Shown: positions 2,101-64,000, numbered from the stretch's first letter. The stretch is 64,000 nt of DNA from an uncultured cyanobacterium (GCA_963718615.1 OY970368.1:3104001-3168000), one strand, 5' to 3'. Program-made: numbers and translations. The notes: generated by a model from the letters alone, not told the origin.

Positions 2101-2147
2101 GTCTCTTTGCGCTAAACTGCCTGAGGCTGTAGCGCGCTCGGTTTCAC

Positions 2148-3422
2148 TTGGCCCTGGAGGGGGATTCGTTGAGACGAGATTTCTTAAACCACCATCGCTT
2201 ATGGTTCCTAGTTGGGTTGTGCCTGGGGATTGATTGGTTGTCTCTTCCGGCGATCGCCACGGAGCCGATTTCTAAACCTGATCCCATCCCATGCTTATCT
2301 ACCGTTCTCCTTGATGTCCATCAAGAGGATACCTGTCGAGATCATGAGATTCAATTCAGTGACACGGCGTTAGAAATTGGCTTGGATGAGCCCCTGCTCA
2401 ATCCTTCCAGTCCAGATGCACCCACCCCAGAGTCCCAGGCTCAAACCGCAGACACCGTAACCGACAGTGTTCCTACGGACCCCCTAGAAGACCCACTCAC
2501 GCCCTCGTTTCCAGAGTCGATTGAGCCGCCGGAAGAGCTGGCCCCGGAGGGAGAGAATCCAACGGAGCCTAGTCCTGGGGCGGAAAACAGTACACCCGAA
2601 GGCGAAGCTGGAGAAGAGACCGATGGCGACATGGGGAGCAGCGATTCAGGGGGTGATCCCGATCTGGGCACGCTTCGACTGAAGGAACGGGAGCTGTCGC
2701 TACAGCGACCTCCGATCCGGATTCCGGTTTATTTTTCACTTGACAGCAGCTACCTCAGCACCAGCAACACCCTGGCCAGCGAAAACTTTCTGGACGATCG
2801 CCTATTCCGTACAACAACCGCGTTGACGGTTTCGCCGATTTTGAACCGCAAAACCTTTCTGTTTGGCTCGGTGCAGGGTAGTGTGTATCGTTACGGTGAA
2901 CTCTCTCGCCTCGACTACAACGAATTGCGGCTGCAAGTGGGAGCCCGACGGGTGTTGTTTCCTCGGGTGGTGGGAGAACTGAGCTGGAGCAATCGGCAGC
3001 TGTATTTTCGGGAGAATGGCGATCGCTTCCTCAACGAACAGGCTTTGAGCCTGGGGATCTCCCGCCGTGATCCCCTCATGGAAAAAGTCTATGTAGATAG
3101 CTTTTACCGACTGCGGGCAGGATTTGCCGAGCCACAGACCAGCAGCCGAGTGGTGCAGATTTTGGGTTCTACCTTAAATTACGACGTTACCCGGCAGATC
3201 AATCTTTCGATCACGGGACTGGGGGTTTGGACGCAATATACCCAGCGCGATCGCCAGGACCTCTATGGTCAAGTTCTGGGCCGCCTGACCTATAAACTGG
3301 CAGACAATACCAAGCTTGGATTGTTTGCCGCCTGGGCTCAAGGGGAATCGTCGAGTCAGGGCGTTGATTTTGACAATACCCTCTTGGGGATTAGCTTTGA
3401 TACTAATATCAAGCTGTTTTAG
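2148..3422 (+). CDS. Outer-membrane beta-barrel protein with acidic Pro-rich periplasmic N-terminus
   Basis: Signal-like N-terminus, alternating amphipathic strands in the C-terminal ~230 aa, terminal Phe (ISFDTNIKLF). Confidence 0.7.
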   Translation: MALEGDSLRRDFLNHHRLWFLVGLCLGIDWLSLPAIATEPISKPDPIPCLSTVLLDVHQEDTCRDHEIQFSDTALEIGLDEPLLNPSSPDAPTPESQAQTADTVTDSVPTDPLEDPLTPSFPESIEPPEELAPEGENPTEPSPGAENSTPEGEAGEETDGDMGSSDSGGDPDLGTLRLKERELSLQRPPIRIPVYFSLDSSYLSTSNTLASENFLDDRLFRTTTALTVSPILNRKTFLFGSVQGSVYRYGELSRLDYNELRLQVGARRVLFPRVVGELSWSNRQLYFRENGDRFLNEQALSLGISRRDPLMEKVYVDSFYRLRAGFAEPQTSSRVVQILGSTLNYDVTRQINLSITGLGVWTQYTQRDRQDLYGQVLGRLTYKLADNTKLGLFAAWAQGESSSQGVDFDNTLLGISFDTNIKLF

Positions 3423-3441
3423 GATTGGGTTAGGGGGTTCC

Positions 3442-5019
3442 ATGGCTTCATCATCGCTTCTGCAACAGTTTCATCGCTGGCGGCTCGGAATGCTAGAACC
3501 CCTGCCCCTGGTCTTACCCAACCGGGCGGTGATCAACAAACGCTATCAAATCCTCTGTCAGCTCGGGCGAGGTGAGGTTGAACGTACCTACTTAGCGGAA
3601 GATTGGCACCACAAGAATCGCTGGTGTGTACTCAAGGAAATTGTGCCTCGCCTACTCAACCCTCGGATGTTGGCGGAGGGGCGGCGGCGGTTTGAGCAAG
3701 AGGTGTCGCTGCTGCGAGACCTGGAGCATCCGCAATTGCCCGCCTTTGGCGAGATGCTGGAATGTGAATTCGCTGGGCTGCATCGCTGGATCGTGGTGCA
3801 GGAATGGCTTGAAGGCATGAGCTATCTCGACTTGGTCAAAAGCCGTCCCTACCGTGAGGAGGAAGTCCTACGGTTTTTGCAGGAGGTGTTTCCAGCGCTG
3901 CATTATTTGCACCAGCAGGATCCACCGGTGATTCATGGCAACCTCTCGCCGGAGACGATTTTACACAGCAGCGAGATGGACAAGCCCATCTTGATTAACT
4001 TTGGCACGTTCAAACATATTGCCGCCCAGATTGCCGATCCCTTTGGTGACCCGGTGTCGCCAAGGCTGCGGCTGTATCGTCCGCCGGAGCAGTTTCGCGG
4101 TCATCTGAGTCCCTCGACGGATCTCTATGCCTTGGCGGTGACAGTGCTGACGCTGCTCACGGGCTGTCCGGATCCGCGAGAGTTTTATGATGCCAAACGG
4201 CGAGAATGGCGCTGGGCCAAACATGTGGCAGTGAGTGTGGGTTTCGTCGTGGTCCTAGACCGAATGCTTCAGGCCGATCCCAATCTTCGCTATCCCTCCG
4301 TGGCGGATGTCCAGGAAGCCTTGGCAGCCATTCATAGCCGTCGGCCAGTCCCGGTGCCTGAAGCGGTGGTGCTGTTATCCAGCCCAACTCAATCCCTAGG
4401 CTCTGCATCCCTAGGCTCTACATCCTTGGGTACTACCGCCACCGCTCCCTATCTTTTACCCCCGGCTCCGACGCTCACGACGCTCAACGCCACCCTCGCC
4501 ACAGGCTTCACGACAACCCTGACCACAACCGCCCAACAGCTTCAGGGGACCATTCACCAGGGCGGCACCTGGGTGGCGGCTGGGCTGCAGCGCAGTGGGG
4601 TGGGGGTGCGATCGCAGCTCCTAAAACTCAAACAAATCCCCCCCGACAAAGCCCTGAATGGCCTGCTGGGTCTCCTGTTCTGGGGCAGCATCCTAGGGTT
4701 TTTGGGGCTCAGTGGCTATGCCGGACTGCGGCTGGTTCACCGGCTCAAGCAAGATCCCGCTATCCAGGCGGTGACGGCGGCTCCGGCGGTGATCCGCTCG
4801 ACCTATTTGCCCGATGGTGACCTGGAAAGTTGCCACACCAACCTAGCTCAGCGCTATCTGAATTTATCTCAGCCCAGTTGGACTGAAGTGGATCAACGGT
4901 TTGCCGCTGCCTTTCCCGGATTTCCGGGGCCGATTGAAGCTCGTAATCCCGACCATGCGTTTTATTTGCAGGAATGGTGTTTTCTTGCGAATCAGTGGCT
5001 AGAAGACCAAGGGAATTAA
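3442..5019 (+). CDS. Membrane-anchored Ser/Thr protein kinase-like protein, probable pseudokinase
   Basis: Hanks-type fold (YQILCQLGRG, VLKE, LEHPQLP, PPEQ, TDLYAL) with degenerate HGNLSPET and NFG motifs; one TM helix near the C-terminus; start moved to ATG 3442. Confidence 0.85.
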   Translation: MASSSLLQQFHRWRLGMLEPLPLVLPNRAVINKRYQILCQLGRGEVERTYLAEDWHHKNRWCVLKEIVPRLLNPRMLAEGRRRFEQEVSLLRDLEHPQLPAFGEMLECEFAGLHRWIVVQEWLEGMSYLDLVKSRPYREEEVLRFLQEVFPALHYLHQQDPPVIHGNLSPETILHSSEMDKPILINFGTFKHIAAQIADPFGDPVSPRLRLYRPPEQFRGHLSPSTDLYALAVTVLTLLTGCPDPREFYDAKRREWRWAKHVAVSVGFVVVLDRMLQADPNLRYPSVADVQEALAAIHSRRPVPVPEAVVLLSSPTQSLGSASLGSTSLGTTATAPYLLPPAPTLTTLNATLATGFTTTLTTTAQQLQGTIHQGGTWVAAGLQRSGVGVRSQLLKLKQIPPDKALNGLLGLLFWGSILGFLGLSGYAGLRLVHRLKQDPAIQAVTAAPAVIRSTYLPDGDLESCHTNLAQRYLNLSQPSWTEVDQRFAAAFPGFPGPIEARNPDHAFYLQEWCFLANQWLEDQGN

Positions 5020-11206: not shown

Positions 11207-11388
11207 ACTGCGACTGAGCTAATCCTGATCTAGCCCTGAGCTACTATGGTGCTTTCACGTCATGCTTTAATGTTGTGCTTTCTTCATCCCAGCGCAGTGG
11301 CTACGATGAATTTATCGCCTATCTCAAAGCGCAGAGAATTTGGGATAGCGCGATTCTGATTCGCCAAGTTTTGCAGCGGTCGGTCCCC

Positions 11389-12222
11389 ATGACACTCTCG
11401 GAAAAACTGGCTCAAATCGATCGCCTCAAGGGCTGGCTCGATGCCTTTCGCCCACTCCCTGCGTCGGTCGTAGCGGAGTTGAAAGCCCTGTATGATGTGC
11501 GGTTTACGTACACCTCTAATGCGATCGAGGGAAACACGTTAACCCAAAGTGAGACTCAGCTTGTGTTGGAGCGGGGGATTACGGTGGGTGGGAAGAGTCT
11601 GACGGAGCATTTGGAGGTGGTTGGCCATAAGGAGGCGATCGACTATATCGAAGCCTTGGCACGGCAGGAGACAGCGATTGGAGAATGGGAGATTCGGCAA
11701 ATCCATAGTTTGATTCTGCGCAAGATTGCCCCAGAGGAAGCGGGCTGCTATCGACAGCTTGATGTCAGAGCAGCAGGAACGGAATATGTGTATCCGCCCC
11801 ATTATGCTGTGTCTGAGTTGATGGCGGAGTTTGTGGAATGGTTAGGGTCTGAAATGGTTCGGACGATGCATCCGGTTTGGCGCGCGACGGTGGCCCATGT
11901 AAAGTTTGTGTCGATTCATCCATTTCGGGAGGGTAATGGGCGAACAGGCCGGTTATTCATGAATTTGTTGCTGTTGCGATCGGGGTATCCGATTGTGGTG
12001 ATTAGCAATCGGGTTCGGCAGGCTTATATTGAGGCGTTGGTGGCAGCGCAGCAGGCTTCTGATTTGGAGCCGATGCTGGAGTTGGTTGCTAATGCGATGG
12101 AGGATGCGTTGATTGACCTGTTGCGGGGGGTGGCGACGGCGGGGGAGAGTCGCGGGAGGGGGTTGAGGTTTTATCGGGAGATGATGGAGATTTTGGATCA
12201 GGGGATGGGTTCGAATCCCTAG
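11389..12222 (+). CDS. Fic family protein (class II, N-terminal inhibitory helix)
   Basis: HPFREGNGRTGR Fic motif; SNAIEGN autoinhibitory motif; likely start ATG 11389. Confidence 0.92.
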   Translation: MTLSEKLAQIDRLKGWLDAFRPLPASVVAELKALYDVRFTYTSNAIEGNTLTQSETQLVLERGITVGGKSLTEHLEVVGHKEAIDYIEALARQETAIGEWEIRQIHSLILRKIAPEEAGCYRQLDVRAAGTEYVYPPHYAVSELMAEFVEWLGSEMVRTMHPVWRATVAHVKFVSIHPFREGNGRTGRLFMNLLLLRSGYPIVVISNRVRQAYIEALVAAQQASDLEPMLELVANAMEDALIDLLRGVATAGESRGRGLRFYREMMEILDQGMGSNP

Positions 12223-15200
12223 GATGTGATGAGGGCTTGGACTTCGTTGGCTTTTTCGGTGAGGTCTAGGTGTTGATAAAGGGCTAGGCTTTGGCTCAGG
12301 TATTGGCGGGCGGTTTGGGGGGCGTTGGGGTCGGTTTGGTTGGGATGTTGATAGATTTCGCCGAGGAGTTTGAGGGCGTCGGCTTGGTGTTTTTGGCGGT
12401 TGTAGGTTTGGAAGGTTTGGAGGGATTTTTGGGTGAGGGTGGTGGCTTGTGGGAGGTCTAGGAGGGCGGGGGTTTCGAGGTGGGCTCGGGCGATATCGAG
12501 GGTTTCTTCGGCGGCGATGAGGGTTTGGTTGAGGCTGGAGAAGAGGTTTAGGGCTTGGGTATAGCTGGTTTTGAATTGGCTGATGAGGGTTGGTGGGTTG
12601 GGGTCGTTGGGGGGGCGGTGGCGGAGTTGTTCGGCTTGGAGGAGGCTGAGGACGATGTGGTCGTAGGCGAGGTTTTCGGTGTATTGTTTTTGGGTGTTGA
12701 TTTGGAGGGCTTGTTGGAGGTTTTGTTGGGCTTGGGTGAGTTGGATGAGGGCGGTGTTTGGGTCGGGGGTTTGGTGGGCTTGTTGGCGTTGGGTGTTGGC
12801 GAGGCGTCTGAGTTGGCGGGCGAGGTTTTCTGAGTGGTCGAGTTTTTTATAGATGTCGTAACTTTGTTGATGATACTGGGCTGCTGTATCGTATTGTTTT
12901 TGTGCGGAGTAGATACTCCCTTGCTGTCGATACGAATCGGCAATGTCTAGCTTCTCGTCTAGCTTTTGACGAAGAGCCAAGTCTTGTTGTGCTGCTTCCA
13001 AAGCTTGCTCATACTTACCCCAGTCTCGATAGCTATCCGATATCCAATACCACTGGTTAGCAACCTTAGAATCTTTTCCTAACTGCTGATAGAGATCTCG
13101 GCTTTGGATGTATTGAGTGATCGCCTCTCCATACTTACTCCAGGCTTGATAGATTCTTCCCAATTGCCAATAAACAGCAGCAATTTCAGAAGAATCATCC
13201 AGCCGTTGACGAATCGCTAACTCCTGCTGCTGTGCTTCTAAGGCTTGCTCATACTTACCCCAATCTCGATAGCAAACTGATATCCGATACCACTGGTTAG
13301 CAACATCAGAATCTTTGCTTAACTGCTGATAAAGGTCTCGGCTTTGGATGTAGTGGCCGATCGCCTCTTCATACTTACTCCAGGCTTGATAGATTCTTCC
13401 CAATTGCCAATAAACAGCAGCAATTTCAGAAGAATCATCCAGCCGTTGACGAATCGCTAACTCCTGCTGCTGTGCTTCTAAGGCTTGCTCATACTTACCC
13501 CAATCTCGATAGCTATCCGATATCCAATACCACTGATTAGCAACATTAGAATCTTTGCCTAATTGCTGATAGAGATCTCGGCTTTGGATGTGGTGGGCGA
13601 TCGCCTCTTCATACTTGCTCCAGGATTGATAGATTCTTCCCAATCGCCAATAAGCAAGGGCAATTCCAGAGGAATCATCCAGCCGTTGACGAATCGCTAA
13701 ATCCTGCTGCTGTGCTTCTAAGGCTTGCTCATACTTACCCCAATCTCGATAGCTATCCGATATCCAATACCACTGATTAGCAACATTAGAATCTTTGCCT
13801 AATTGCTGATAGAGATCTCGGCTTTGGATGTGGTGGGCGATCGCCTCTTCATACTTACTCCAGGCTTGATAGATTCTTCCCAAGGCATAGTAAGCTCTAG
13901 CAACTCCAGAAGAATCATCTAGACTTTGATGAATCGCTAGATATCGCTGCATTGCTTCCAAAGCTTGCTCATACCTACCCCAGTCTCGATAGCTATCTGA
14001 TATCCAATACCACTGAGTAGCAACATTAGAATCTTTGCCTAACTGCTGATAGAGGTCTCGACTTTGGGTGTGGTGGGCGATCGCCTCTTCATACTTGCTC
14101 CACGCTTGGTAGATTCTTCCTAATCGCCAATAAGCAGTAGCAACCCCAGATGAATCATCCAGCCGCTGACGAATTGCTAACTCCTGCTGTGCTTCTAAGG
14201 CTTGCTCATACTTGCCCCAGTCTCGATAGCTATCCGATATCCAACCCCACATATTAGCAACATCAGAGTCTTTGCCTAACTGCTCATAGAGGTCTCGGCT
14301 TTGGATGTAGTGGCCGATCGCCTCTTCATACTTACTCCACTCTTGGTAGATTCTTCCCAATCGCAAATAAGCAAGGGCAACTCCAGAAGGAATCATCCAG
14401 CCGTTGACGAATCGCTGAATCCTGCTGCTCTGCTTCCAATGCTTGCTCATACTTACCCCAGTCTCGATAGCTATCCGATATCCAACCCCACATATTAGCA
14501 ACATCAGAGTCTTTGCCTAACTGCTCATAGAGGTCTCGGCTTTGAGTGTGGTGGGCGATCGCCTCTTCATACTTGCTCCAGGCTTGATAGATTTTTCCCA
14601 AGGCATAGTAAGCTCCAGCAACCCCAGAAGAATTATCTAGACTTTGACGAATCGCTAAACATTGCTGCCTTGTTTCCACAGCCTGCTCATACTTACCCCA
14701 ATCTCGATAGCAATCTGATATCCAAGCCCACTGATTCGCAACATTAGAATCTTTGCCTAATTGCTGATAGAGGTCTCGACTTTGGGTGTGGTGGGCGATC
14801 GCTTCTTCATACTTGCTCCACTCTTGGTAGATTCTTCCCAATCGCCAATAAGCAGTAGCAATTCCAGAAGGAATCATCCAGCCGTTGACGAATTGCTAAT
14901 TCTTGCTGCTGTGCATCCAATGCTTGCTCATACTTACCCCAGTCTCGATAGCAATCTGATATCCAATACCACTGATTAGCAACATTAGAATCTTTGCCTA
15001 ATTGCTGATAGAGGTCTCGACTTTGGGTGTGGTGGGCGATCGCCTCTTCATACTTGCTCCAGGCTTGATAGATTTGTCCAATTTGTCGATAAACACTAGC
15101 AATTTCAGAAGAATCATCCAGCCGTTGACGAATTGCTAACTCCTGCTGCTGTGCATCCAATGCTTGCTCATACTTACCCCAGTCTCGATAGCTATCCGAT

Positions 15201-18200
15201 ATCAAACACCACAGGTTAGCAACATTAGAATCTTTGCCTAATTGCTGATAGAGGTCTCGACTTTGGGTGTGGTAAGCGATTGCCTCTTCATACTTACTCC
15301 AGGCTTGATAGATTCTTCCCAATCGCCAATAAGCAGTAGCAATTCCAGAAGGAGTCTTCCAGCCGTTGACGAATTGCTAACTCCTGCTGCTGTGCATCCA
15401 ATGCTTGCTCATACTTACCCCAGTCTCGATAGCTATCCGATATCAAACACCACAGGTTAGCAACATTAGAATCTTTGCCTAATTGCTGATAGAGGTCTCG
15501 ACTTTGGGTGTGGTAAGCGATTGCCTCTTCATACTTACTCCAGGCTTGATAGATTCTTCCCAATCGCCAATAAGCAGTAGCAATTCCAGAAGGAGTCTTC
15601 CAGCCGTTGACGAATTGCTAACTCCTGCTGTTCTGCTTCCAAAGCTTGCTCATACTTGCCCCAGTCTCGATAACTATCCGATATCCAATACCAGAGATCT
15701 GCAACATTAGAGTCTTTGCCTAACTGCTGATAGAGGTCTCGACTTTGGGTGTAGTGGGCGATCGCCTCTTCATACTTATTCCAGGCTTGATAGATGCTTC
15801 CCAATTGCCAATAAGCAGTAGCAATTCCAGAGGAGTCTTCCAGCCGTTGACGAATTGCTAAATCCTGCTGTTCTGCTTCCAAAGCTTGCTCATACTTACC
15901 CCAATCTCGATAGCAAGCTGATATCCAACCCCATAGATTAGCAACATCAGAATCTTTGCCTAACTGCTGATAGAGGTCTCGACTTTGGGTGTGGTGGGCG
16001 ATCGCTTCTTCATACTTGCTCCAGGCTTGATAGATTTGTCCAATTTGTCGATAAACACTAGCAATTTCAGAAGAATCATCCAGCCGTTGACGAATTGCTA
16101 ATTCTTGCTGCTGTGCATCCAATGCTTGCTCATACTTACCCCAGTCTCGATAGCTATCTGATATCCAATACCACTGGTTAGCAACATTAGAATCTTTGCC
16201 TAATTGCTGGTAGAGGTCTCGACTTTGGGTGTAGTGGGTGACTGCCTCTTCATACTTACTCCAGGCTTGATAGCTTCGGGCAAGGTGCCAAAAGAGATAA
16301 GCCTCAGCCTTAAGGTTCTGAGCTTGTTGAGCAATAGCAATAGCCTGCTGAAAGCACTGTAGGGATTCTGCGTATCTACCATGAGATCTGTAACAAACAC
16401 CCCGATATCTCCATAAAATTAACTGCTCAGCAGAATCCGAATCAACATTCAATTTATCCGAACATTGCTGATAATATTGCAAGCCTTGATCATAATCATC
16501 TTTCTTCTCATAGGCAATCGCAATTGCCCACTCTACAAATCCACCAAAATAGCAATTATCCTCATCCACCAGCAATTCCAACCGCTCCAGCGCCCGATCA
16601 TAATGATCTGCCCTCAAATACGATAGGGAGGCTACAAACACCAAGCATCGACGATCATCAGAATCAAAATACCCTAAATCTAATGCTCGCTCCAGCACCG
16701 GGCTCATCTCCGCACCCAATTCTGCCATCAAGTCTCGTATATCACCAAACAATGAAGGCGTAAGGTGCTGCATAACCTCCACAACTCGTTCTGCCAACAA
16801 TTCTTCCGAATTACCACAAGCCACATACAACATCGCTACCCAAGCTCGGTTCCGCTGCTCAGTCGAAAGCTGTCGGTTCTCCACCGCCTGCTGCAATCGC
16901 CCCCAAACCTGATGATTAAAAGCTTCAATCCCCCGCAATCGCTGCAAGAGTTGCTTAACGGGCTCTTTACTAAATCCCTCATCTAACCCCAAATAAGTCA
17001 ACACCAACCTGTCAACCTGCCTAGCACAAAACGTTGACAACACCCGCACTTCAGCCAATATCTGTCCCACAAACAGCAAATCTTGCCACAGCCCCTCCGA
17101 CTCCCGTATCGCACTTTCTGATTGCGAATACCACAATAGAATCGGATTATCGCTCCCAGAATTCTGAAGGCGAATCTCTTGCCCTAAAATATTCGGCTGA
17201 TACTCTGATAAATTACGAAATAACTGCTCCAAAAGGCGATTGGTTCGTTTCTGGTCAGCACTTAAATACCCGAGCGCCAACAAAATCGGCTCATTCCACC
17301 GGGCCTGATTGCGATAGGGACCAATAATCTCCAAAATTTCACTAATCTCATTATCCGCAATCTGCCGAGCCGCAAAATACTCCTCAAACGTCAGATGCAT
17401 AAACCCATACATCTCCGGAGCCCGCTCCACAAATAGCCCCGTCGTCTCCCGCACCTTCCGCAAAAACTGCCGCACTAACTCCAGCGCAGCCTGCTCATCC
17501 ACCCCCTGCAATTCCATCATGTGCGGCGTCAGCCATCGCTCAACCTCCCCCTGGGCCACAATCCCCGAAGGCTTCTCCTCATGCATCCGCAGCGCCAGCG
17601 GAGCCAAAAGCGCCGTTACCTCTTCCTCCACCAACATCAACTGCCGATGTCTAGCCTGATAAGGAATATTGCGGCCAAGCTGCCAATCCTCAATCAACGT
17701 CTTTGCCGCCAATTGATAGAGCTCCACCCGACGCTGGGGCAACCGCGTACCATTGCGATGGATCAGCGCCAAAATCGTCAAAAGCAAAGGATTCGCTGCA
17801 AATCGCCTCACCCCTTGATTGCTCGAAATTTCCTGCACAATCTCTTGGGCTTCCCGATCCGCATCCCGCTGTTGTCGCTCCGCCTCAACCTCTGGCCGCT
17901 GCGCGATTTCGACCGCCAAACACCAACGCCTCAGGAATTGCTCAATCTGTTCATCCCCCATGGGCGTAATCGTAAATTCTCGAAACCGGCTTCCCAACGC
18001 AGCCTGCTTGTACCCCGCAATCCGACTTGTAACCACAAACTTGTTATTACGATACTCATCAACCAATCGATTAATGTGTTGAACAACCTGCACCCGATTG
18101 TCTTGATCAAACACCTCATCCAATCCATCCAGCAAAACCAAACAATCCCCTGTCGCCATTCGGTTCAGCAGCAGATTCGCCACAGAATCCCCATCCGTAG

Positions 18201-19347
18201 CCTCAAAACGGTGCTCCCACTGGCGATAAAATTGCTGGAGATAATCTACCAGGCTCAACTCTGGCGTATCAGTCAACCGTTCCGCATAGTCCGCAATCCG
18301 AAACAGAATGGGCAACCGCATATCTCCCAGTTCTTCTTCTTTCCCCCCTACCACGGTGGAGAGACGATCCCGCTGAGCCAAGGCAAAATGCCTTGCTAAG
18401 TAGCGCAGCAACGTCGTTTTCCCAGCCCCCGGATCACCCAAAATCACGCAATAGGTGTGCTTACGCACCGCCTCCGCCAGATCCACCACCTTCGTCACTC
18501 GCTGTTGCCGAGTATCAGACTCAACAGGACGCTCAAGCGTTATTTCCTGTTTCAATGCTCCAACGAGCTTAAGCGGTGATTTTCTACCTGGCTCTAAACT
18601 CTCTTCCCATTCACTTGCCCCTGAACCCACAGCCCCATTTATCGGGCTCAGATTCACGGGCGACTCTACTGCAACAATCTGTTCTTTGAAAGACTGGCTT
18701 CGCTTTTCCTCCCAGGAGCCCTGTAGTGATACATAAATTTGATCTAGGGAAATATCAACCTGCCGATTGACCTGCATGACCCCACTGACCCTCAGCCGTG
18801 AGTTTTCTGAGATTAGCCATTCCAAATAGGGATATAGCAACGGATCAAGCTGAGGACGTGTCGTAAAGATCGCGACTTTGCCCCGCCAATCCCAAAAGTC
18901 TGCAGCCCGTCGCCGAAACTCCTCTAAAAAAGACTCTCGATTCAGCCAAAAGACCAAAATCAAACCCTGCTCAAAAATTCGCTCTCTCCCCAAATTGAGC
19001 TGTTCCATTTCCTGCCGAAGCAAATCAGGCCGGAGCTGCTCTAAGCCAAAGGCCATCACAATTCGGCGTGTCGGGTTAGTCTTTGCTGAATCGGCTGGCA
19101 ATTGATGTAGAAAGTTAAATAATGAATCCTCGCTGTAATGAAACGTCAAAAAATGAAATTCATTTTCTAACTGCTGGATCTCTATCTTAAACGCCTGGGA
19201 AACAGGATGATCTGGAGCACTATCCGGTGTAATTGCAAACAGCGTCAAGCTCCGCTCGCTCATGGCTACAGCATTGACTAATTTAGCCAACTCGTCCCGT
19301 TCTTCGGCATCAAGAAGATGTAGATGATTTTCCGATTGAGTCATCAT
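12219..19347 (-). CDS. NACHT-TPR (NLR-like STAND) protein, ~2374 aa if four +1 frameshifts are removed; split into 5 ORFs as given
   Basis: ILGDPGAGKTT Walker A, LLDGLDEV Walker B, NPLLLT, GFMHLTFEEYFAA; 28 near-identical TPR motifs; 7129 nt minus 4 extra bases = 7125 nt, in frame. Confidence 0.88.
12960..16272 (-). repeat. Tandem array of 14 x ~240-bp units, each encoding two TPR motifs (80 aa)
   Basis: Unit YQAWSKYEEAIAHHTQSRDLYQQLGKDSNVAxxWxxISxxYRDWGKYEQALEAQQQELAIRQRLDDSS recurs every 237-241 bp. Confidence 0.97.
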
Positions 19348-20639
19348 CAGTTCTCCCCATTCATAGAGCGCCAGCGTTCCAAATCGATAGCCAAAATTGG
19401 ATTAATATCAAACCATCGGCCTTGCTCAGGATCCTGATACCCCAAGACTAACTTATTGTGCAGAAGTTCATCGCAGATCACAACCTTGCCATATTTAGGG
19501 GAATCAAAGGAATTCGTGGTCAATTGCCCTGTTTTTTTGACCGTATTCAGCTCCGGAAACTGATAATCTTCAACCGTATAGCCTTGCCGCTCCTCTCGTA
19601 CAGCATCTTGGGCTAGGGCGAGGCTGATTTCGCTACTTTTTTTACGTAGGGCCACTTCTCCAGAGGTTCGTGCCAGACGGACCAGATCGCGCATTACCCC
19701 CCCACTTGTCTCACAAAGCAGATTCAAGGCATCAGGATGGAACAGGTTTCTGAAGGTCGGCTCCAGCGTTCCCAACCTCTTCTGAATCACCGTTGTTAGA
19801 ATATGTCGTCCAACTCGATCTGACTCATGGGTTGGTCGTGCGTGATCATCACATTTAAAAACCGGGATATTAGATAAGTCTAGGCATTTATCAAAGCTCT
19901 GCATTGGCTGCCTAAATGCCGAGGAATAACGTAATGAGATCGGAATTGCATAAACGATATGACAGTTTAGATCAGTCATCAAAGAACTAGAGAACATCTC
20001 TAGTGCAATCCCAAAATCTTTTCTATCCAAACCATCTACAATCACCAAGAGCTTTGGCTTATTCTGCTCTGCCACCGCAATGATTTCGTTAACCTTCGCA
20101 ACAATTTCACCTATTGCTGGACGAACTTCACGAGTCGCTGTTGTTTCTCGTTGAAACCCAACCTTTAACAGCAGTCCTAAGTCTTTAAAAAGCTTTGGCA
20201 ATTCTAGCTGTCCACCACCAGTAACTTTGTCTTGATAGGTGATACGCGCTAGACTCGTTAGTAATTCCTGCTCTAGCTTCCGAGGTAGCCTCCACCCAAG
20301 CTTTGTGAGCTGTTGGACAATTTGTAACCCAATCAGAACAACTACTTCCGCATAACCAATATTGTATTTGTCTAGAGCTGTGTCAGTGTCCACCCAGACA
20401 ACGGTGTAGTCTGAGACACATTTTTGTTCGAGTCGCCGTAGCTCTGTCGTTTTTCCACCTCCCCGATGACCCGCCAGCAGAAACTTTGCCGCTCCATCAT
20501 CCATTGCCAGAAGTTCTATGAGACTATCGACTGGACTATCCTCTCGACGTACATAAAAATCTCGTAACTCTCTGTCTATCAACGGTTCATCGGGCTTAAA
20601 GAGCTGATAGACAGGGGTCCAAAACTTAAGATCACTCAT
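19347..20639 (-). CDS. P-loop (AAA+/STAND-like) ATPase, translationally coupled to the NACHT-TPR gene
   Basis: LLAGHRGGGKTTEL Walker A, LLVIVDGLDR Walker B, SGGVMRDL; stop overlaps next start (TGATG). Confidence 0.88.
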   Translation of the reverse strand: MSDLKFWTPVYQLFKPDEPLIDRELRDFYVRREDSPVDSLIELLAMDDGAAKFLLAGHRGGGKTTELRRLEQKCVSDYTVVWVDTDTALDKYNIGYAEVVVLIGLQIVQQLTKLGWRLPRKLEQELLTSLARITYQDKVTGGGQLELPKLFKDLGLLLKVGFQRETTATREVRPAIGEIVAKVNEIIAVAEQNKPKLLVIVDGLDRKDFGIALEMFSSSLMTDLNCHIVYAIPISLRYSSAFRQPMQSFDKCLDLSNIPVFKCDDHARPTHESDRVGRHILTTVIQKRLGTLEPTFRNLFHPDALNLLCETSGGVMRDLVRLARTSGEVALRKKSSEISLALAQDAVREERQGYTVEDYQFPELNTVKKTGQLTTNSFDSPKYGKVVICDELLHNKLVLGYQDPEQGRWFDINPILAIDLERWRSMNGEN

Positions 20640-20786
20640 AGCGCCAAGACAAATCTGAGGATATTACGCAGCACTGATATTATGCGTGCTTTGGATGATG
20701 CAAGGTGAGACATGGATCACGTCCGAGACGTTACACTGTAGCCATGGCTCCTCCGCTATGGCTTTCCACCCCAGGAGACTCCATCC

Positions 20787-21362
20787 ATGGTCGTCACCAT
20801 CAACCTCCAGCCAACCCTTGAGTTAACCGACGTGCAGTTCGAACAGATCTGCCACCAAAATCGTGACCTAAAATTTGAGCGCACCGCCAAAGGAGGATTG
20901 GTCATTATGTCCTTAACAGGGGGCGAGACTGGCGAACGTAATGCTGAGATCAACGGCCAACTGTGGCTTTGGAATCGCCAAGCCCGTCTTGGTCACATCT
21001 ATGACTCCTCCACAGGCTTTCGGTTACCCAACGGAGCCATTCGCTCGCCCGATGCCGCCTGGATCAGCCAACCTCGCTGGGAAGCCCTCACCCCTCAACA
21101 ACGTCAACGCTGGGTGCCGCTTTGTCCTGATTTTGCCGTGGAATTGAAGTCCCCTTCCGATGACATTGAAGACTTGCGGATCAAGATGCGGGAATATCTC
21201 GAAAATGGCTTGCAATTGGGTTGGTTAATCGACCCAGAGAGCCAAATCGTAGAACTGTATCGAGCCGATCAAGCCGTTGAAATTTTGAGCCATCCAGAAA
21301 CCCTTTCCGCAGAAGAACTGATGCCGGGGTTTGTTTTAAGTTTGGTTGGAATTCTAGAGTGA
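20787..21362 (+). CDS. Uma2 family (PD-(D/E)xK-like) endonuclease
   Basis: FERTAKGGLVIM, DSSTGFRLPNGAIRSPDAAW, PLCPDFAVELKSPSD, LGWLIDP. Confidence 0.95.
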   Translation: MVVTINLQPTLELTDVQFEQICHQNRDLKFERTAKGGLVIMSLTGGETGERNAEINGQLWLWNRQARLGHIYDSSTGFRLPNGAIRSPDAAWISQPRWEALTPQQRQRWVPLCPDFAVELKSPSDDIEDLRIKMREYLENGLQLGWLIDPESQIVELYRADQAVEILSHPETLSAEELMPGFVLSLVGILE

Positions 21363-21443
21363 TGGGCGATCGCCAAAAAAGGACGCCTTACTCCCGAAGA
21401 AGCAACAGCGCCCAGTCCTCACCTATTCTGCTATTCTGCTCAA

Positions 21444-23648
21444 TTAGCCCAGGGGATTGAGTCCTGGATCAGTGACCCAGAAAGAACCATCAATTCCTGC
21501 CAAGTCAGAGTCAGCGGTCGATGACAGGATTGCCTGTCCGCCTAAACTGTTTCCCTGAATCTCTACCTCCACCGCACGGTCATAACGACTATCGATCAGC
21601 GGTTGTGTGAGCATTACACCACCATCAAAATTCGCACGGAACTGGCCAGCCAACAGGAAGATATCATCGGTTGTACCAGTGCTTGGATCGAAATCAGAAT
21701 CGATCGCGTCATTAACGCCCACATTGGCCTGGGTAAGCTCGTATCCTGCAGGCAATCCCTCGATCGCAACCCTGTATTGCCCTGCAGCAAGGTTGCTAAA
21801 GCCATAGAAGCCCTCAGCGCCCGTCGTTTGGGTCCGAATGAGATCATCAGCAGTATTGAATTGTGCATCTGCCCCAGCCCCGCGCAGCGTGACCTGCGCG
21901 CCCGCAAAACCGCCTTCATTGACATCGTGCAGGCCATTGCCATTTTCATCGAAAAAGACACGGTTGCCGATAAAACCCGTTTTGGGATCAACCTTACCCG
22001 GTGTGGAGACCACGCCCGCATCAATATCGGCACGAAACTGACCGGCTGACAGGGTGATCGGCTCTGTCATGCCACTGTTGGGATCAACGTCTGAATCCAG
22101 GGCGTCGTTATTGCCCACATTGGCATAGGTGAGCTGAAAGCCTTCCGGCAGGCTGTCGATAGAGATTTTGTATTGTCCCGCAGCCAGATCGCTGAATCCG
22201 TAAAACCCTTTTTGCGCTGTGGTTTGGGTCTGGACAATATCGTCTTCCGTGTCAAAGAGATTATCCGTTCCAGCGCCCCGCAGAGTTACCCTTGCCCCTG
22301 CAAATCCCTCTTCATTGCCGTCATAAAGACCATTGCCATTGGCATCGAAAAAGACCCGGTTGCCGATGAAACCCGTTTTGGGATCTACGGCAGGTCCTGC
22401 CTGTTGGACAACACCGGCATCAATATCGGCTCGAAATTCTCCAACTTCCAGCGTAATTTGTTCACTGATACCGCTACTGGGGTTAAAGTCAGAATCGATC
22501 GCATCATTGCCGCCCACATTGGCTTGGGTCAGTTGAACCTCTTCCGGCAAATTATCAATCGCAATTTGATATTGACCAGCAGCCAGATCGCCAAAACCAT
22601 AGAATCCCTCAGCCCCGGTCGTTTGGCTCCGAACTAAATCGTCATTGGTGTTGAATAAACCATCAGCACCAGCGCCCCGTAGGGTTACCCGTGCTCCGGC
22701 AAAACCGCCTTCGTCCGTATCCAAAAGACCGTTGGCATTGGCATCCAGAAAAACCCGGTTGCCGATGAAACCGGTCTTAGGATCAATCTTTTCCGGAGTG
22801 GTCACAACGCCTGCATCGATATCTGCGCGAAACTGGCCCGCCGAGAGTGTGATCACATCTGTCAAGCCACTGTTCGGATCAACATCCGAATCAAAGGCAT
22901 CGTTGTTGCCCACATTAGCTTGGGTTAGTTGGAAGCCTTCGGGTAAGTTGTCAAGGGAAATGGTATATTGCCCCGCCGCCAGATTGTCAAACCCATAAAA
23001 GCCCTGCTGACCTGTGGTTTGGGTCCGAATGACATCATCCGCCGTTTCAAACAGACCATCGGCACCCGCACCCCGCAGGGTTACCTGTGCGCCTCCAAAG
23101 CCTTCTTCGTTCTCATCAAAAAGACCATTGCCGTTTTTATCCAAAAAGACTCGGTTGCCGATGAAACCAGTCTTAGGATCGACTAGTGGACCTGTCTGTT
23201 GGACGACACCCGCATCAATATCAACCCGGACTTGATTATCCGCTAAGTTGATAATCTCTGTCTCACCTGTGAGCGGATCAATGTCAGAATCAATCGTGTT
23301 GTTATTGCCCACCTTTGCATGGGTTAGCTGAAACCCTTCGGGCAGATTATGGATAGAGATTTTGTATTGTCCACCCGCGAGATCGCCGAAACCATAAAAG
23401 CCTTGGGAGTTTGTATTTTGGGTTCGAAGAATATCATCATCAGTATTGAAGATTCCGTCTGCTCCAGCGCTCTGTAGCGTGACTTGGGCTCCAGCAAAGC
23501 CGCTTTCATTGGCTTCGTGCAGGCCATTGCCATTTTCGTCGAAGAAGACACGGTTGCCAATAAAACCGAGGGGAAGAAGAGTCAGTTCTGAGCTTTGATT
23601 GCTTTCAATATTCTGAAAGAGAGAAGAGCTGGTCGTGAATGAAGTCAT
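21444..23648 (-). CDS. SdrD B-like (Cna-B) repeat surface protein, 5 domains
   Basis: Five ~134-aa repeats GFIGNRVFxDxNGNGL...T..T...GFYGF.DLAAGQY...N.G.ND..DSD...DIDAGV. Confidence 0.9.
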   Translation of the reverse strand: MTSFTTSSSLFQNIESNQSSELTLLPLGFIGNRVFFDENGNGLHEANESGFAGAQVTLQSAGADGIFNTDDDILRTQNTNSQGFYGFGDLAGGQYKISIHNLPEGFQLTHAKVGNNNTIDSDIDPLTGETEIINLADNQVRVDIDAGVVQQTGPLVDPKTGFIGNRVFLDKNGNGLFDENEEGFGGAQVTLRGAGADGLFETADDVIRTQTTGQQGFYGFDNLAAGQYTISLDNLPEGFQLTQANVGNNDAFDSDVDPNSGLTDVITLSAGQFRADIDAGVVTTPEKIDPKTGFIGNRVFLDANANGLLDTDEGGFAGARVTLRGAGADGLFNTNDDLVRSQTTGAEGFYGFGDLAAGQYQIAIDNLPEEVQLTQANVGGNDAIDSDFNPSSGISEQITLEVGEFRADIDAGVVQQAGPAVDPKTGFIGNRVFFDANGNGLYDGNEEGFAGARVTLRGAGTDNLFDTEDDIVQTQTTAQKGFYGFSDLAAGQYKISIDSLPEGFQLTYANVGNNDALDSDVDPNSGMTEPITLSAGQFRADIDAGVVSTPGKVDPKTGFIGNRVFFDENGNGLHDVNEGGFAGAQVTLRGAGADAQFNTADDLIRTQTTGAEGFYGFSNLAAGQYRVAIEGLPAGYELTQANVGVNDAIDSDFDPSTGTTDDIFLLAGQFRANFDGGVMLTQPLIDSRYDRAVEVEIQGNSLGGQAILSSTADSDLAGIDGSFWVTDPGLNPLG

Positions 23649-23878
23649 AGAACGTTGTTAACCTACAAAGTGAGTAGGTAAATGACCCGATTCAAAAAAG
23701 ATGCGATGGCTTTACTTTAGGTGATGATGCGGGATCTGTGCAAGTGTTATCACTGATAAATAACTCATTTATCGGCAACTTTATTTACTTGCAAAACGCT
23801 TTTTACACAGTACATGAAAACAGCGATCTGAATCGGGTTAACTCTCGCTAAAAATTTAGACTGGGGATGAGAAGTCTG

Positions 23879-24811
23879 CTACAACCGATATTGCCGAAAC
23901 ACATCGCTGGCGGCCCGATGGAGGAGCGAATGGCGAAAGACCAAGGCATTTAGATCATCGCAATAGCCCCCACCGATCACACAGGCTACCGGATAGCCTG
24001 CACTGACGCATGTGCTCAAAACCTGCATATCGCGACGGAATAGACCTTGATCCGTGAGGGCCAGTTTGCCGAGGCGATCGCCCACATGGGGATCCACCCC
24101 CGCATTGTAAAACACAATATCCGGCTTTACTTGGCTCAATAGATCGGGCAGATGCTGCGCCAACGCCTGGAGATACTCATCATCCTCAGTCCCTTCTCCG
24201 AGGGGCAGATCCAGATCGCTTTGCTGTTTGCGCAGGGGAAAGTTAATGCCGCAGTGGATCGAAAAGGTAAACACCCGAGGATCATTGCGAAAAATCCAGG
24301 CAGTGCCGTCCCCTTGGTGAACATCCAGATCGACGATGAGGATTTGCTGGGCTTGGTTGTTTTGGAGGAGCGATCGCGCCGCCACCGCAAAATCATTAAA
24401 AATGCAAAACCCCGAACCATAGTCCGGAAACGCATGGTGGGTGCCCCCCGCCGTATTGCAAGCCAAACCTCGCTCTAGGGCCAGTTGTGCCGTCAAAATG
24501 GTTCCCGCCACCGCTCGACAGGTGCGCCGCACCAAGACTGGCGACCAGGGCAAGCCAATGCGACGCTGGGCGCGAGGGTCAAGGGTTCCAGTTTGATAGG
24601 CCCGAATATACTCCGGACTATGAACCAGTTGTAGGAGCGTATCGCTGGGAAAATCCGGTGCGTGAAACTGATGGGGGTGAACCACCCGATCTCGCAGTAG
24701 CAACTCTCGCAGTAGCGAGAATTTACTCATGGGAAAACGGTGGTGCTCCGGCAGCGGCGCAACATATTCAGGATGGTAGACCAGGGGCAAGTCGGCGATC
24801 GCAGACACCAT
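23879..24811 (-). CDS. Histone deacetylase family (Zn-dependent deacylase) protein
   Basis: HRFPMSKF, GGTHHA...GSGFCIFND, DLDVHQGDGT, GVDPH..D.LG, GGGY. Confidence 0.93.
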   Translation of the reverse strand: MVSAIADLPLVYHPEYVAPLPEHHRFPMSKFSLLRELLLRDRVVHPHQFHAPDFPSDTLLQLVHSPEYIRAYQTGTLDPRAQRRIGLPWSPVLVRRTCRAVAGTILTAQLALERGLACNTAGGTHHAFPDYGSGFCIFNDFAVAARSLLQNNQAQQILIVDLDVHQGDGTAWIFRNDPRVFTFSIHCGINFPLRKQQSDLDLPLGEGTEDDEYLQALAQHLPDLLSQVKPDIVFYNAGVDPHVGDRLGKLALTDQGLFRRDMQVLSTCVSAGYPVACVIGGGYCDDLNALVFRHSLLHRAASDVFRQYRL

Positions 24812-50024: not shown

Positions 50025-50993
50025 ATGGCGATCGCCCCTCCCTCCGTTTCTTCTGCTCCTGCTTCTGCATCCTCTTCCGCAACGCCTGCACCCTATGCCT
50101 TGCACCATTGGACCTGGCGAGGCTACCAAATTCAGTACGCCGTCGCCGGAACCGGAACGCCGCTGGTCTTGATCCATGGTTTTGGAGCATCGATTGGCCA
50201 TTGGAAGAAAAATATTCCCGTCTGGGCTGCTGCGGGCTACCAGGTCTTTACGCTGGATCTGCTGGGGTTTGGGGCCTCCGAAAAGCCCTTGACGGACTAC
50301 AGCCTAGAACTTTGGGAGGACCTGCTGGCAGAGTTTTCAGCAGAGTTGATTGGCCAACCGGCGGTCTTCATTGGCAACTCCATTGGTGCGCTACTCAGTT
50401 TGATGATGGCGGTGAATCATCCCGACCAAGTCAGCGGCATCATTTTGCTTAACTGCGCTGGGGGACTCAGCCATCGCCCCGAGGAACTGCCCCCACCGCT
50501 GCGGGTTGTCATGGGAACCTTTAACACACTGGTAAATTCCAATCAGTTGGGTCCGCTGATGTTCAATTTGGTGCGCCGCAAACCCCAGATTCGTCGGGCA
50601 TTACAACAGGTGTATCGTAAACCTGGCTCCGTTACCGATGAGCTGGTGGACATGCTCTACGAACCCTCCTGCGACCCCAATGCCCAAAGCGTCTTCGCTT
50701 CGATCCTGACCGCTCCCCCCGGACCAACCATCGAAACTCTCTTGCCGAAACTGGAAAAACCGATGCTCGTGCTCTGGGGCGAAGATGACCCCTGGACGCC
50801 GGTTAAGGGCAGCCAAATTTTCCAAGACCGTGCCCAAGACCATGCTCAAAACCGCAACACGACGTTTATTTCCCTACCCCGCACTGGCCATTGTCCCCAC
50901 GACGAGCGGCCCGAGCTGGTAAATCCACTGATCTTGTATTGGCTCAAAACCATAACATCAACCCGACAAGTGTCGGAATCCCACTGGGGGTAG
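50025..50993 (+). CDS. Alpha/beta fold hydrolase
   Basis: LIHGFGAS, DLLGFGAS, GNSIG nucleophile elbow, WGEDD, GHCPHDE. Confidence 0.93.
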   Translation: MAIAPPSVSSAPASASSSATPAPYALHHWTWRGYQIQYAVAGTGTPLVLIHGFGASIGHWKKNIPVWAAAGYQVFTLDLLGFGASEKPLTDYSLELWEDLLAEFSAELIGQPAVFIGNSIGALLSLMMAVNHPDQVSGIILLNCAGGLSHRPEELPPPLRVVMGTFNTLVNSNQLGPLMFNLVRRKPQIRRALQQVYRKPGSVTDELVDMLYEPSCDPNAQSVFASILTAPPGPTIETLLPKLEKPMLVLWGEDDPWTPVKGSQIFQDRAQDHAQNRNTTFISLPRTGHCPHDERPELVNPLILYWLKTITSTRQVSESHWG

Positions 50994-51600
50994 AAATTCT
51001 GGAATTTACGGAGGAACGATGCAAAGCCCTGATTAGGAAGGACTATTTGTCTTTGTGCAGTTTCTTCTTTACACGACATTGAAGTAGATATCCGTGAACC
51101 CCTTAGACTAAGGGGAACGTGCCCCCTGTAATCTTAATATCGTCGTTAATATCTGTTGGATATAGATAAAGATACGAGAGTGCAATAAATTCTCGATATT
51201 TGAGTCCGATAATTTTCTCTTGGGAATGGGAACAATAGAGTCAGCTCACGATAAGTAGCAATTAATCAAGGAAGTCGAGCAGGAGACAATCGAGTCGTGA
51301 CCTAGTCGTGGCCTAGATGATACTTTCTGCTGTCAGACGTTTCCTCACAGTCTACCTATCGTTGTACGGGTGCTACTCTATCGAATCTTCGCTAAAAATC
51401 ATAGAGGTCTCACTTTGTCAATAGCTGAAGGACTGCACCGAAAACGAGGGGCTATCTTCCTCCTGCCAAATCCGCAGTAACGTCTATCTTGTATTAGAGA
51501 TGGCTTAGTGCTTGTCTAGTTCTGTATTTATTGCAGTTGCTCGATTTCTCTAAGCCACAGCTTGTGTAGGTTCTTTCTGTGTAGGAGCACACCAACTGAA

Positions 51601-52728
51601 ATGGACATCTGTATAGTGAGTGGCATCTTCCCGCCAGATATTGGAGGGCCAGCCAGCTACGTTCCTAAAATCGCTAATACATTAATTGAACAAGGGCACA
51701 GCGCTGAAATAGTTTGTCTCAGCGATTCACTAGCGCATGATGATTTGAATGACTATCCCTTCAAGGTAACAAGAATTCAGCGTTCTTTACCAAAATATAG
51801 GCGTAGTATTGAAATAATCCATGCTATTTGCAGAAGCGCTAAAAACGCAAATCTTATATACGTAAACGGTCTAAGTCTAGAATCAATGATTGCCGCTCTA
51901 ATTTCCAAGAAGCCAACTATTCATAAGGTTGTTGGAGACTATGCGTGGGAAAGAGCACAGCTCTGGCGGCATTTTACTGGCACATTAGATGAATATCAGA
52001 CAACAAAGAAGAATTTAAAATTGAAGGTTCTAGACTTTATCAGGACAGCACCACTCAGAAAGTCACACTCAATTATTGTCCCAAGCAAATACCTTAAAAA
52101 AATAGTTATTGGATGGGGCATTAGTTCAAAAAAACTAAGAGTTATCTATAATGCTATCGACATTCCAAATCCTCAAACAGATTTGATTTTTCCAAAGGTA
52201 TCTGGGAAAGCGATTGTAACGGTAGGAAGATTGGTTCCTTGGAAAGGTGTGGATGGAATTTTAAACGTTCTATCTCAGATCAAAGATTGCCATCTTGTTA
52301 TCATAGGTGAAGGTCCTCTCCGTAATGAACTAGAAATTCTGTGCCATAAACTTAATCTGGAAGATCGAGTAACATTTATGGGGGCTCTTTCAAAATCTCA
52401 AGTTACTTACTGCTTAGAGAAAGCTGATTTATTCGTTCTTAATTCTACCTATGAAGGTCTACCTCATGTTGTGCTTGAGGCTATGAAAGCTGGGACTCCT
52501 GTAGTTGCTACTGATGCAGGAGGGACCTCAGAGGTTATACAAGATCGTGAGAATGGACTATTAGTGTCCGTAGGAAATGAAGAGAAACTTAAGGAATGCA
52601 TTCAGAAGATACTTGCAGAACCTAAGTACGCTCAACAGCTAGCTAATCAAGCTTATAATGATGTGAATGAAAAATTCTCATTAGAGAATATGTTGAAGGA
52701 GTCAATACAAGTATTTTCCCAAGTATAG
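51601..52728 (+). CDS. GT4 glycosyltransferase
   Basis: FPPDIGGPA, VGRLVPWKG, EGLPHVVLEAM. Confidence 0.92.
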   Translation: MDICIVSGIFPPDIGGPASYVPKIANTLIEQGHSAEIVCLSDSLAHDDLNDYPFKVTRIQRSLPKYRRSIEIIHAICRSAKNANLIYVNGLSLESMIAALISKKPTIHKVVGDYAWERAQLWRHFTGTLDEYQTTKKNLKLKVLDFIRTAPLRKSHSIIVPSKYLKKIVIGWGISSKKLRVIYNAIDIPNPQTDLIFPKVSGKAIVTVGRLVPWKGVDGILNVLSQIKDCHLVIIGEGPLRNELEILCHKLNLEDRVTFMGALSKSQVTYCLEKADLFVLNSTYEGLPHVVLEAMKAGTPVVATDAGGTSEVIQDRENGLLVSVGNEEKLKECIQKILAEPKYAQQLANQAYNDVNEKFSLENMLKESIQVFSQV

Positions 52729-52755
52729 CAACTACAAAGTAGGACTACAGCAGCA

Positions 52756-53319: not shown

Positions 53320-53331
53320 GCGAGGAAGGCC

Positions 53332-54522: not shown

Positions 54523-54530
54523 AGAAAATC

Positions 54531-55613: not shown

Positions 55614-55737
55614 TTTTCGAACAATCCTGAACACGCTCAGTAATGCTTTCAGTCTCCGTATACTTATAATGAATCAAGTCTGATTTTTATCTACTATAAA
55701 AATCAGAAAGTTAAGTACATCAAAGTAATAGAAAGCC

Positions 55738-57907: not shown

Positions 57908-57952
57908 GTTGCTAGTTGTCTCATAAATATTTAAGTTTGAAATCGTATAACC

Positions 57953-63999: not shown

Positions 64000-64000
64000 A

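Follow-up and report, generated by a model that had tools for sequence, protein, structure and literature searches.

What is the long tandem array of tetratricopeptide repeats (TPRs) on the minus strand of a 64,000-nucleotide (nt) stretch of DNA from an uncultured cyanobacterium (GCA_963718615.1 OY970368.1:3104001-3168000; hereafter the window), and do its units trade sequence with one another? An earlier note on this DNA proposed a hypervariable repeat, a bacterial analogue of fungal NOD-like receptors (NLRs) that diversifies its ligand groove by recombination within the array. Our analysis makes it probable that the array is the C-terminal sensor of an NLR-like NTPase of the STAND class (signal transduction ATPases with numerous domains) and that its units are exchanged within the array, in a filamentous cyanobacterium rich in the highly iterated palindrome HIP1.

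Tandem Repeats Finder (TRF) reports a period of 240 nt over 13.7 copies (12993-16277), with 88% matches and, after rounding, 0% indels. Read on the minus strand, the units run from U00 (16326-16087) to U13 (13205-12966). Each consists of 80 codons, that is, two 40-residue TPRs, of which the first is degenerate in U00. Pfam TPR_12 matches the array at E=2.4e-49 and 1e-65, and matches in the Protein Data Bank (PDB) to consensus TPR, GPSM2 (E=2.5e-20, the best among solved structures) and kinesin light chain (KLC; ~1e-8 to 1e-9) likewise place the repeats in the class of 40-42 residues. U01-U13 are 81-100% identical to one another in DNA (mean 86.7%), and the 12 units that lack a 3-nt deletion present in U08 average 82% identity in amino acids; together with the TRF value, these figures fall within the ~80-90% unit identity that marks repeats of high internal conservation (HIC). 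The earlier note likewise counted 14 units, but its description of them as near-identical in DNA overstates their likeness, given this range of identities and a mean number of synonymous substitutions per synonymous site (dS) of 0.36. U03 and U04 are 100% identical over 241 nt. All sixteen helix-1 and helix-2 alleles that the note listed are found in the unit alignment, along with two that it lacked, GVATAYWRLGR (U09) and NQWYWISDC (U05). The alleles do recur with changed partners: EIASVYRQIGQ is joined to NLWGWISAC in U01 and to NQWYWISDC in U05, and GIATAYWRLGR is joined to NLWCLISDS in U03 and U04 and to NQWAWISDC in U06.

Upon comparing the units codon by codon, we observed that their variation is not random. 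The proportion of nonsynonymous differences (pN) reaches 0.20 in codons 6-18 and 0.13 in codons 46-58, which encode helix A of the first and second TPR, respectively, against 0.056 elsewhere, and the synonymous proportion (pS) is not enriched there. The note had confined the variation to two short helices; it is indeed concentrated in the A helices, but the B helices (codons 30-33 and 72-76) also vary. Over 13 units, the Nei-Gojobori dN/dS ratio reaches 1.12 in codons 6-18 and 0.53 in codons 46-58, falls to 0.13 across all remaining codons and is lowest, at 0.07, in the scaffold once the four variable patches are set aside. The same unit positions vary in other genomes. Within-array entropy in 19 other arrays correlates with that in the window (Spearman 0.54, p=3e-7), and the shared peaks fall at positions 6, 7, 10, 13, 17, 46, 47, 50, 51, 53, 54, 57, 72, 75, 77 and 79. 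Pooling the 101 units of 12 arrays whose units are at least 80% identical, in a crude pairwise comparison of per-codon pN with global pS, we obtained a ratio of 1.9 for codon 10 (bootstrap interval 1.52-2.41), the only codon whose interval lies above one, and of 1.3 (0.87-1.78) for codon 13; the other variable codons lie at 0.7-1.0 and 28 codons lie below 0.2. These ratios together indicate a strongly constrained scaffold and a helix-A face that is free to change or diversifying.

In a HMMER alignment to the consensus TPR, unit positions 10, 13, 14 and 17 and unit positions 50, 53, 54 and 57 correspond to canonical positions 2, 5, 6 and 9, which we take to be the classical ligand-contact positions of TPRs. 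The hypervariable positions interleave with the core residues W4, L7, G8 and Y11. In TPR proteins the A helices line the concave groove (passages in PMC5642895). Assigned by canonical numbering and literature, the variation therefore falls on the predicted binding surface, and the hypervariable helix-A residues are likely to be ligand-contact positions.

The array is a mosaic. Four-gamete incompatibility affects 850 of the 1891 pairs formed by 62 informative sites, and no permutation out of 2000 gave a pairwise homoplasy index (PHI) as low as the observed one (0/2000), in line with the recombination that the earlier note had proposed. The nearest neighbours of the first and second halves of a unit differ in 11 of 13 units. 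Adjacent units are more alike than in random orderings (p=0.006), and the nearest unit lies in the same array for 128 of 157 units overall and for 12 of 12 in the window. At synonymous sites, too, the units are homogenised. Within-array dS is 0.36 in the window and 0.36 in the closest orthologue (L023), and the two loci have diverged from each other at dS 1.36 in the non-repeat part of the gene and 1.65 in its partner gene. Equal within-array values in species this far apart suggest a steady state rather than one recent burst. These data show that the units are kept alike in DNA by exchange within the array, through unequal crossing-over or gene conversion, and that the same process shuffles a small repertoire of variants at helix-A positions predicted to face the solvent, so that each array would have its own combination of contact residues. 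A genome-wide DNA search with two units returned 10 matches, all within the array; paralogous donor arrays, which the earlier note had entertained as a source of variants, were rejected because no unit copy lies outside the array in this genome. HIP1 (octamer GCGATCGC) occurs 8 times in the array, but 72 times in the window against 1.2 expected, and since it is abundant throughout we claim no specific role for it as a recombination hotspot here.

Arrays of close relatives differ sharply. Four orthologues from Nostocaceae are 94-95% identical over the first 3 kb, outside the array, and their arrays hold 6.6-11.5 copies. All four come from short-read assemblies. Units of one pair (L029 and L032) are still 98-99% identical, whereas the best unit matches of the five remaining pairings reach only 76-85% and their hypervariable signatures differ. 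At E<=1e-50, an orthologue is present in 2 of 40 related genomes. Each lies behind the partner gene, encodes an unbroken protein (2032 and 1906 aa) and has the same C-terminal cap. A scan of species-representative genomes found 39 loci, all cyanobacterial, in genera that include Lyngbya, Richelia, Symploca, Microcoleus, Nostoc, Calothrix, Dolichospermum and Scytonema; with two loci from genomes of the same class these make up the 41 related loci to which we refer. An array with a period of 240 or 480 nt is present in 29 of the 39 (2.1-14.5 copies, 75-94% matches), and most open reading frames (ORFs) of the relatives run through it, as in L052 (2461 aa, 14.5 copies, 92% matches). Concerted evolution and reshuffling of units in this array, and a repeat number that varies among the related loci, are features of HIC NLRs. 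Some of these loci are interrupted at or near the array start, either by N gaps (L026 at ~14140-14290, L034 at ~13200-13350) or by the end of the contig (L024, L040, L051, L053, L054 and L055), and six carry single frame breaks at other positions (L060, L047, L044, L057, L050 and L058). Gaps and contig ends of this kind are to be expected where HIC repeats are assembled from short reads (passages in PMC12222747). Either frequent pseudogenisation or faulty assembly could account for all these interruptions.

The NACHT gene that contains the array starts at 19347 on the minus strand. Its NTPase domain matches PF05729 at 42.1 bits, above the cut-off of 26.7, and we read the Walker A motif GDPGAGKTT and the Walker B motif LLDGLDE from the translation, which identifies it as a STAND NTPase of the NACHT clade. 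Some divergent TPRs lie between this domain and the array. Of the tripartite layout of NLRs, the nucleotide-binding module and the TPR repeats are recognisable, and a conserved N-terminal domain of ~285 aa precedes them. The window copy of this N-domain has no match in Pfam or the PDB, and 15 other members give scattered weak Pfam matches (best E 0.043). By profile search, the same domain stands at the N terminus of NACHT-HEAT and NACHT-FGE-sulfatase proteins (P0146, P0150, P0155, P0163, P0166 and P0175), so that it is presumably a constant effector or adaptor module; being joined to interchangeable sensors, it supports the view of the TPR array as the sensor. At the other end, the C-terminal cap has tblastn matches in 33 of the 41 related loci, and in 25 of these the match spans 170 residues or more at no less than 38% identity.

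Directly upstream lies a partner gene for a small P-loop NTPase. The two genes are translationally coupled, one base being common to the stop codon of the partner and the ATG that starts the NACHT gene. The partner occupies the same place in 39 of the 41 related loci, the two exceptions being truncated contigs. Its Pfam matches stay below cut-off (nSTAND_NTPase5, E=3.5e-5; AAA_16, E=4e-4), its homologues form 275 protein clusters with the precomputed families PF25199, PF13191 and PF07693 and with listed source names that are cyanobacterial, and a PDB profile search returned only zeta toxin (E=0.003), in the P-loop region. That N-domain and partner form paired adaptors is unsupported, as hhalign finds no similarity between them. 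Neither gene contains an effector domain recognisable by family or PDB searches. A scan for promoters and terminators gave counts below shuffle expectation and was uninformative.

A mechanism for these elements suggests itself from their analogy to NLRs and to the STAND sensors of bacteria. The protein would consist of the N-domain, which has no recognised fold, the NACHT domain, a few divergent TPRs, the 14 double-TPR units and the cap, in this order, and its gene would be co-transcribed with that of the partner. The groove or superhelix of the TPRs may bind a non-self protein or peptide, binding may then release oligomerisation of the NACHT domain, and the N-domain, the partner NTPase or both may give the output.

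As assembled, the gene is interrupted. U03, U04, U06 and U08 each carry an extra T at codons 5-6 that shifts the frame by +1, reading TCC-T-TCT where the remaining units have TCC TCT or TCT TCT, and the same insertion stands on three unit backgrounds. The first ORF stops 18 codons past the first inserted T, and further ORFs follow the breaks (15294-15563, 14807-15322, 14332-14877 and 12219-14504), the last of which holds the only frame in which the cap can be reached. Because of the four frameshifts, the full receptor cannot be made from the gene as assembled. The peptide strings of the earlier note span the breaks without mention of them. When we scanned metagenomes for the frameshift site with the T, for the site without it and for a conserved 30-mer of the scaffold, we obtained 0 matches for each. 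The positions of all features are given in Table 1.

Table 1. Positions of the features of the receptor locus and its neighbours, counted from the first letter of the window.
Feature	Position	Strand	Evidence
Fic-domain gene	11275..12222	plus	PADLOC SoFic E=1.8e-32
Non-repeat C-terminal cap, 248 aa	12219..12965	minus	tblastn matches in 33/41 loci
HIC array, 14 units (U00-U13) of 240 nt	12966..16326	minus	TRF, unit alignment, TPR_12 matches
Extra T in U08; the unit also has an in-frame 3-nt deletion	14387..14388	minus	Strand reading and unit alignment
Extra T in U06	14868..14869	minus	Strand reading and unit alignment
Extra T in U04	15349..15350	minus	Strand reading and unit alignment; base missing from metagenome contig
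Extra T in U03 (TCC-T-TCT), +1 shift	15590..15591	minus	Strand reading and unit alignment
First ORF of broken gene (1270 aa): N-domain, NACHT, divergent TPRs, U00-U02	15535..19347	minus	ORF reading
NACHT NTPase, aa 299-475	17923..18453	minus	PF05729 E=1.1e-10
N-terminal domain, ~aa 1-285 of NACHT protein	18493..19347	minus	Conserved alignment; in no Pfam family
Partner gene, 430-aa P-loop NTPase	19347..20639	minus	ORF; sub-cut-off Pfam matches
Uma2-family putative restriction endonuclease gene, divergent from partner	20787..21362	plus	

How firmly the array can be called a shuffled sensor depends on what else could have produced it. It is unlikely that the array results from recent tandem amplification under relaxed surface constraint, with neither adaptive diversification nor ongoing shuffling. 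Such an origin would agree with the ratios of 0.7-1.0 at most variable codons, with the greater similarity of neighbouring units and with the identity of U03 and U04, but it would not account for the hypervariability of the same positions in 19 other arrays or for a codon 10 that changes faster than synonymous sites. Simple duplication also leaves the incompatible sites and the unit halves of different ancestry unexplained, a within-array dS of 0.36 in both species sits poorly with a divergence of 1.36, and in five of the six close-relative pairings the units have diverged further than the remainder of the gene. We give almost no credence to variation written by a diversity-generating retroelement (DGR) or another templated mutator. 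Related NACHT proteins with the same N-domain do carry FGE-sulfatase sensors, the usual target fold of DGRs (Kibby et al., supplementary discussion), but reverse transcriptase PF00078 has 0 matches in this genome and did match in the control genomes, no template copy of a unit lies outside the array, and the variant codons are not adenine-specific; we rejected the array as a DGR target on the first two grounds. Several observations weigh against the sensor reading itself. Positive selection is supported at one codon only, and the other variable codons fit relaxed constraint; the mapping to the concave face follows canonical numbering rather than a 3-D model; short-read assembly, the source of most arrays of relatives, handles HIC repeats unreliably (passages in PMC12222747); no PADLOC or NCBIfam defence model scores above its cut-off (EruA, 39.7 bits against 1000); and the neighbourhood is no clear defence island. 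Two further points concern the broken frame. The tract common to all four insertion sites is only ~10 nt long, which makes a consensus error possible. Moreover, the sole public DNA run that holds part of the window (share 0.06) contains one 220-nt contig across the junction of U03 and U04 (15282-15502, depth 2.5), which aligns without mismatch and with one gap, at base 15349, the extra T of U04.

We lean towards the extra Ts being real, a recent mutation that inactivated the gene and spread from unit to unit through the same exchange. If so, the allele would make a truncated product of 1270 aa without the cap, and the three backgrounds, together with the perfect 241-nt duplicate, would be the trace of recent copying within the array. 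It is also quite possible that the four Ts are consensus errors of the assembly and that the strain encodes an intact protein of ~2,375 aa with 14 units and the cap. The otherwise 100% identical metagenome contig lacks exactly that base, the insertion resembles a merge of the two natural codon variants, intact orthologues exist, the motif is found in 0 of 50 loci from other genomes, and the frame-corrected ~3.3 kb downstream, through U13 and the cap, show no decay by a further stop or indel besides the 3-nt deletion in U08. Yet in the same one-contig genome of 6.10 Mb there are 25 tandem arrays of three or more copies that have matches of at least 80% and a period divisible by 3 and no shorter than 60 nt. 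A single open frame spans the whole of 24 of them, arrays with 96-98% unit identity included, and this array is the one exception, its longest frame covering 46%. The clean corrected frame downstream also speaks against a generic error. Coding density is normal in the rest of the window (frames of at least 150 codons cover 89% of the whole), U02 and U11 share the local context TCC TCT GGA ATT GC and lack the insertion, and a read slip of one unit would, as we reason from the alignment, hit U02, U04, U06, U08 and U11 rather than the observed U03, U04, U06 and U08. Four identical sites at the same unit position and in the same direction would also be expected of programmed +1 ribosomal frameshifting or recoding, with the full-length protein still made. 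This is very improbable: four shifts in series would leave a negligible yield, orthologues read through without a break, and by the rules for prfB and Ty1 the sequence UCC UUC UGG would offer neither slippery +1 pairing in the P site nor a rare or stop codon in the A site. Moreover, the absence of the motif from the 50 loci and the location of the relatives' frame breaks, at other places or at N gaps, exclude a conserved recoding site. More speculatively, and in our estimation doubtfully, the broken state could be a reversible OFF state, with the four insertions as a tracer of ongoing gene conversion over very short tracts. Unequal crossing-over between U02 and a unit beyond U08 would then delete the shifted units and yield an in-frame receptor of ~8 units with a new specificity, and the out-of-frame units would act as a silent cassette store, like pilS or vls but within one immune-type sensor gene.

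The hypervariable repeat of the earlier note stands as regards its units, its alleles and its non-random variation; near-identity in DNA and confinement to two helices are overstated, and the array as assembled is not a single ORF. Its larger proposal, of a bacterial analogue that diversifies its groove by recombination within the array, gains support from the mosaic, homogenised units and loses some to a modest signal of positive selection and a frameshifted copy. The locus also carries a warning: such arrays break short-read assemblies, and alleles such as this one with its four frameshifts need validation by long reads.

The genome context is that of an organism with many such proteins. The 24 further in-frame arrays, all with intact frames, have periods of 66-393 nt and 80-98% matches; examples on G000:C1 lie at 472790-474489, 1985716-1986276, 2725055-2725658, 2740365-2741451, 3510252-3511007 and 5071332-5072842. 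Seven arrays that we scanned include WD40, nSTAND1-WD40, CHAT-TPR, CHAT-NACHT-TPR, caspase-NB-ARC and TPR-trypsin proteins. The genome holds a large repertoire of HIC-repeat proteins of conflict type, which makes this locus typical of the organism. Around it, the upstream neighbours encode Uma2, SdrD-like, HDAC and M50 proteins and the downstream neighbours Fic, pentapeptide, glyoxalase and MutS2 proteins. The Fic gene converges on the NACHT-TPR gene, their 3' ends overlapping by 4 nt, and stands beside the cassette in 0 of the 41 related loci. Positions 12000-24000, which comprise the cassette and its neighbours, have a GC content of 0.46-0.50 against 0.52-0.59 in the flanks; together with the orthologues in only two of 40 related genomes, this suggests patchy, possibly horizontal inheritance. 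Farther away, GC content is 0.33-0.40 at 52000-64000 against 0.50-0.59 elsewhere, HIP1 is absent from 50036-62557, and the 52000-64000 block looks like a horizontally acquired island. On the plus strand, the open frames 2133-3422 and 3289-5019 overlap by 134 nt; the second has a protein kinase domain and the first no family, and they may be separate genes or a single gene that has been split.

Among known proteins, the closest solved relatives of the units, LGN/GPSM2/Pins and kinesin light chain, share TPRs of 40-42 residues and bind peptides in a groove lined by A helices (passages in PMC5642895), but their repeats are few and divergent and they have no NTPase. The bNACHT and Avs sensors, which bind phage proteins through a TPR-like domain of 'antigen receptor-type' (passages in PMC13581612 and 10.1101/2022.07.19.500537), resemble the present protein in combining a NACHT/STAND core with a C-terminal TPR-like sensor domain. 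They differ in that characterised Avs sensors are not HIC arrays, and in this gene we recognise no effector of the nuclease, protease or TIR type. In PADLOC, the NTPase core gives only short P-loop matches and the best match overall is the generic TPR-repeat model PDLC01169 (E=3.7e-12), so that assignment to a curated anti-phage STAND system (Avs, bNACHT or EruA) was rejected. NACHT/STAND sensors diversified by DGRs occur in multicellular bacteria, including filamentous cyanobacteria (PMC10907252). There too the target is the sensor of a conflict-system NTPase, and the present N-domain is also found beside FGE-sulfatase sensors; here, by contrast, recombination acts among tandem units, with no reverse transcriptase and no template repeat.

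The likeness to fungal NLRs that the earlier note drew is apt. In those proteins, HIC repeats of the WD40, ANK and TPR types contain positively selected positions, which in TPRs lie on the concave side (passages in PMC4986451), and some natural alleles have repeats interrupted by a stop or a frameshift (passages in PMC12222747). Both systems place repeats of 80-90% internal identity after a STAND NTPase and combine hypervariability of the binding face with concerted evolution and reshuffling of units; at this locus, the NACHT domain before the array, the mosaic units, their homogenisation and the hypervariable helix-A positions all fit. Unlike the fungal genes, this one is bacterial and built on an 80-residue double-TPR unit, its N-domain belongs to no known family rather than being a HET, HeLo or sesB effector, an obligate P-loop partner gene precedes it, and repeat-induced point mutation (RIP) and sexual recombination play no part. 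Membership in the fungal HET-E/NWD family itself was rejected, as the repeats are TPRs and neither HET nor WD40 gives a match.

Bacterial HIC NLRs are the nearest counterpart. NLRs with WD and TPR repeats of 80-90% internal identity are described for bacteria in Dyrka et al. 2020 (10.1101/2020.01.06.895854), and HIC NLRs have been surveyed in all domains, cyanobacteria included (Ament-Velasquez & Saupe 2026, PMC13449251, section 12). Passages in these papers describe the class to which the present protein belongs, NACHT or NB-ARC with TPR or WD repeats in cyanobacteria and actinobacteria, and propose diversification of the fungal type. Cyanobacterial HIC-repeat NLRs are already in print (2014, 2020, 2026), as is the proposed shuffling regime (2020, 2026). 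The same passages report occurrence, without analysis per site, at synonymous sites or of mosaicism, and do not name this two-gene family; our literature search likewise found neither such an analysis of a bacterial array nor this family by name, although supplements could hold either. Diversification of repeats by recombination is well documented in fungi, and for bacteria it is proposed rather than demonstrated in the passages that deal with it. The family described here, a two-gene cassette with arrays of 2-14 units, is a tractable bacterial case with three signatures that can be measured in genomes: helix-A positions that vary in common, homogenisation at synonymous sites, and sharply different arrays in close relatives. 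As such, it could serve to test whether the NLR-like sensors of bacteria, like the fungal receptors they resemble, retune their specificity by shuffling units.

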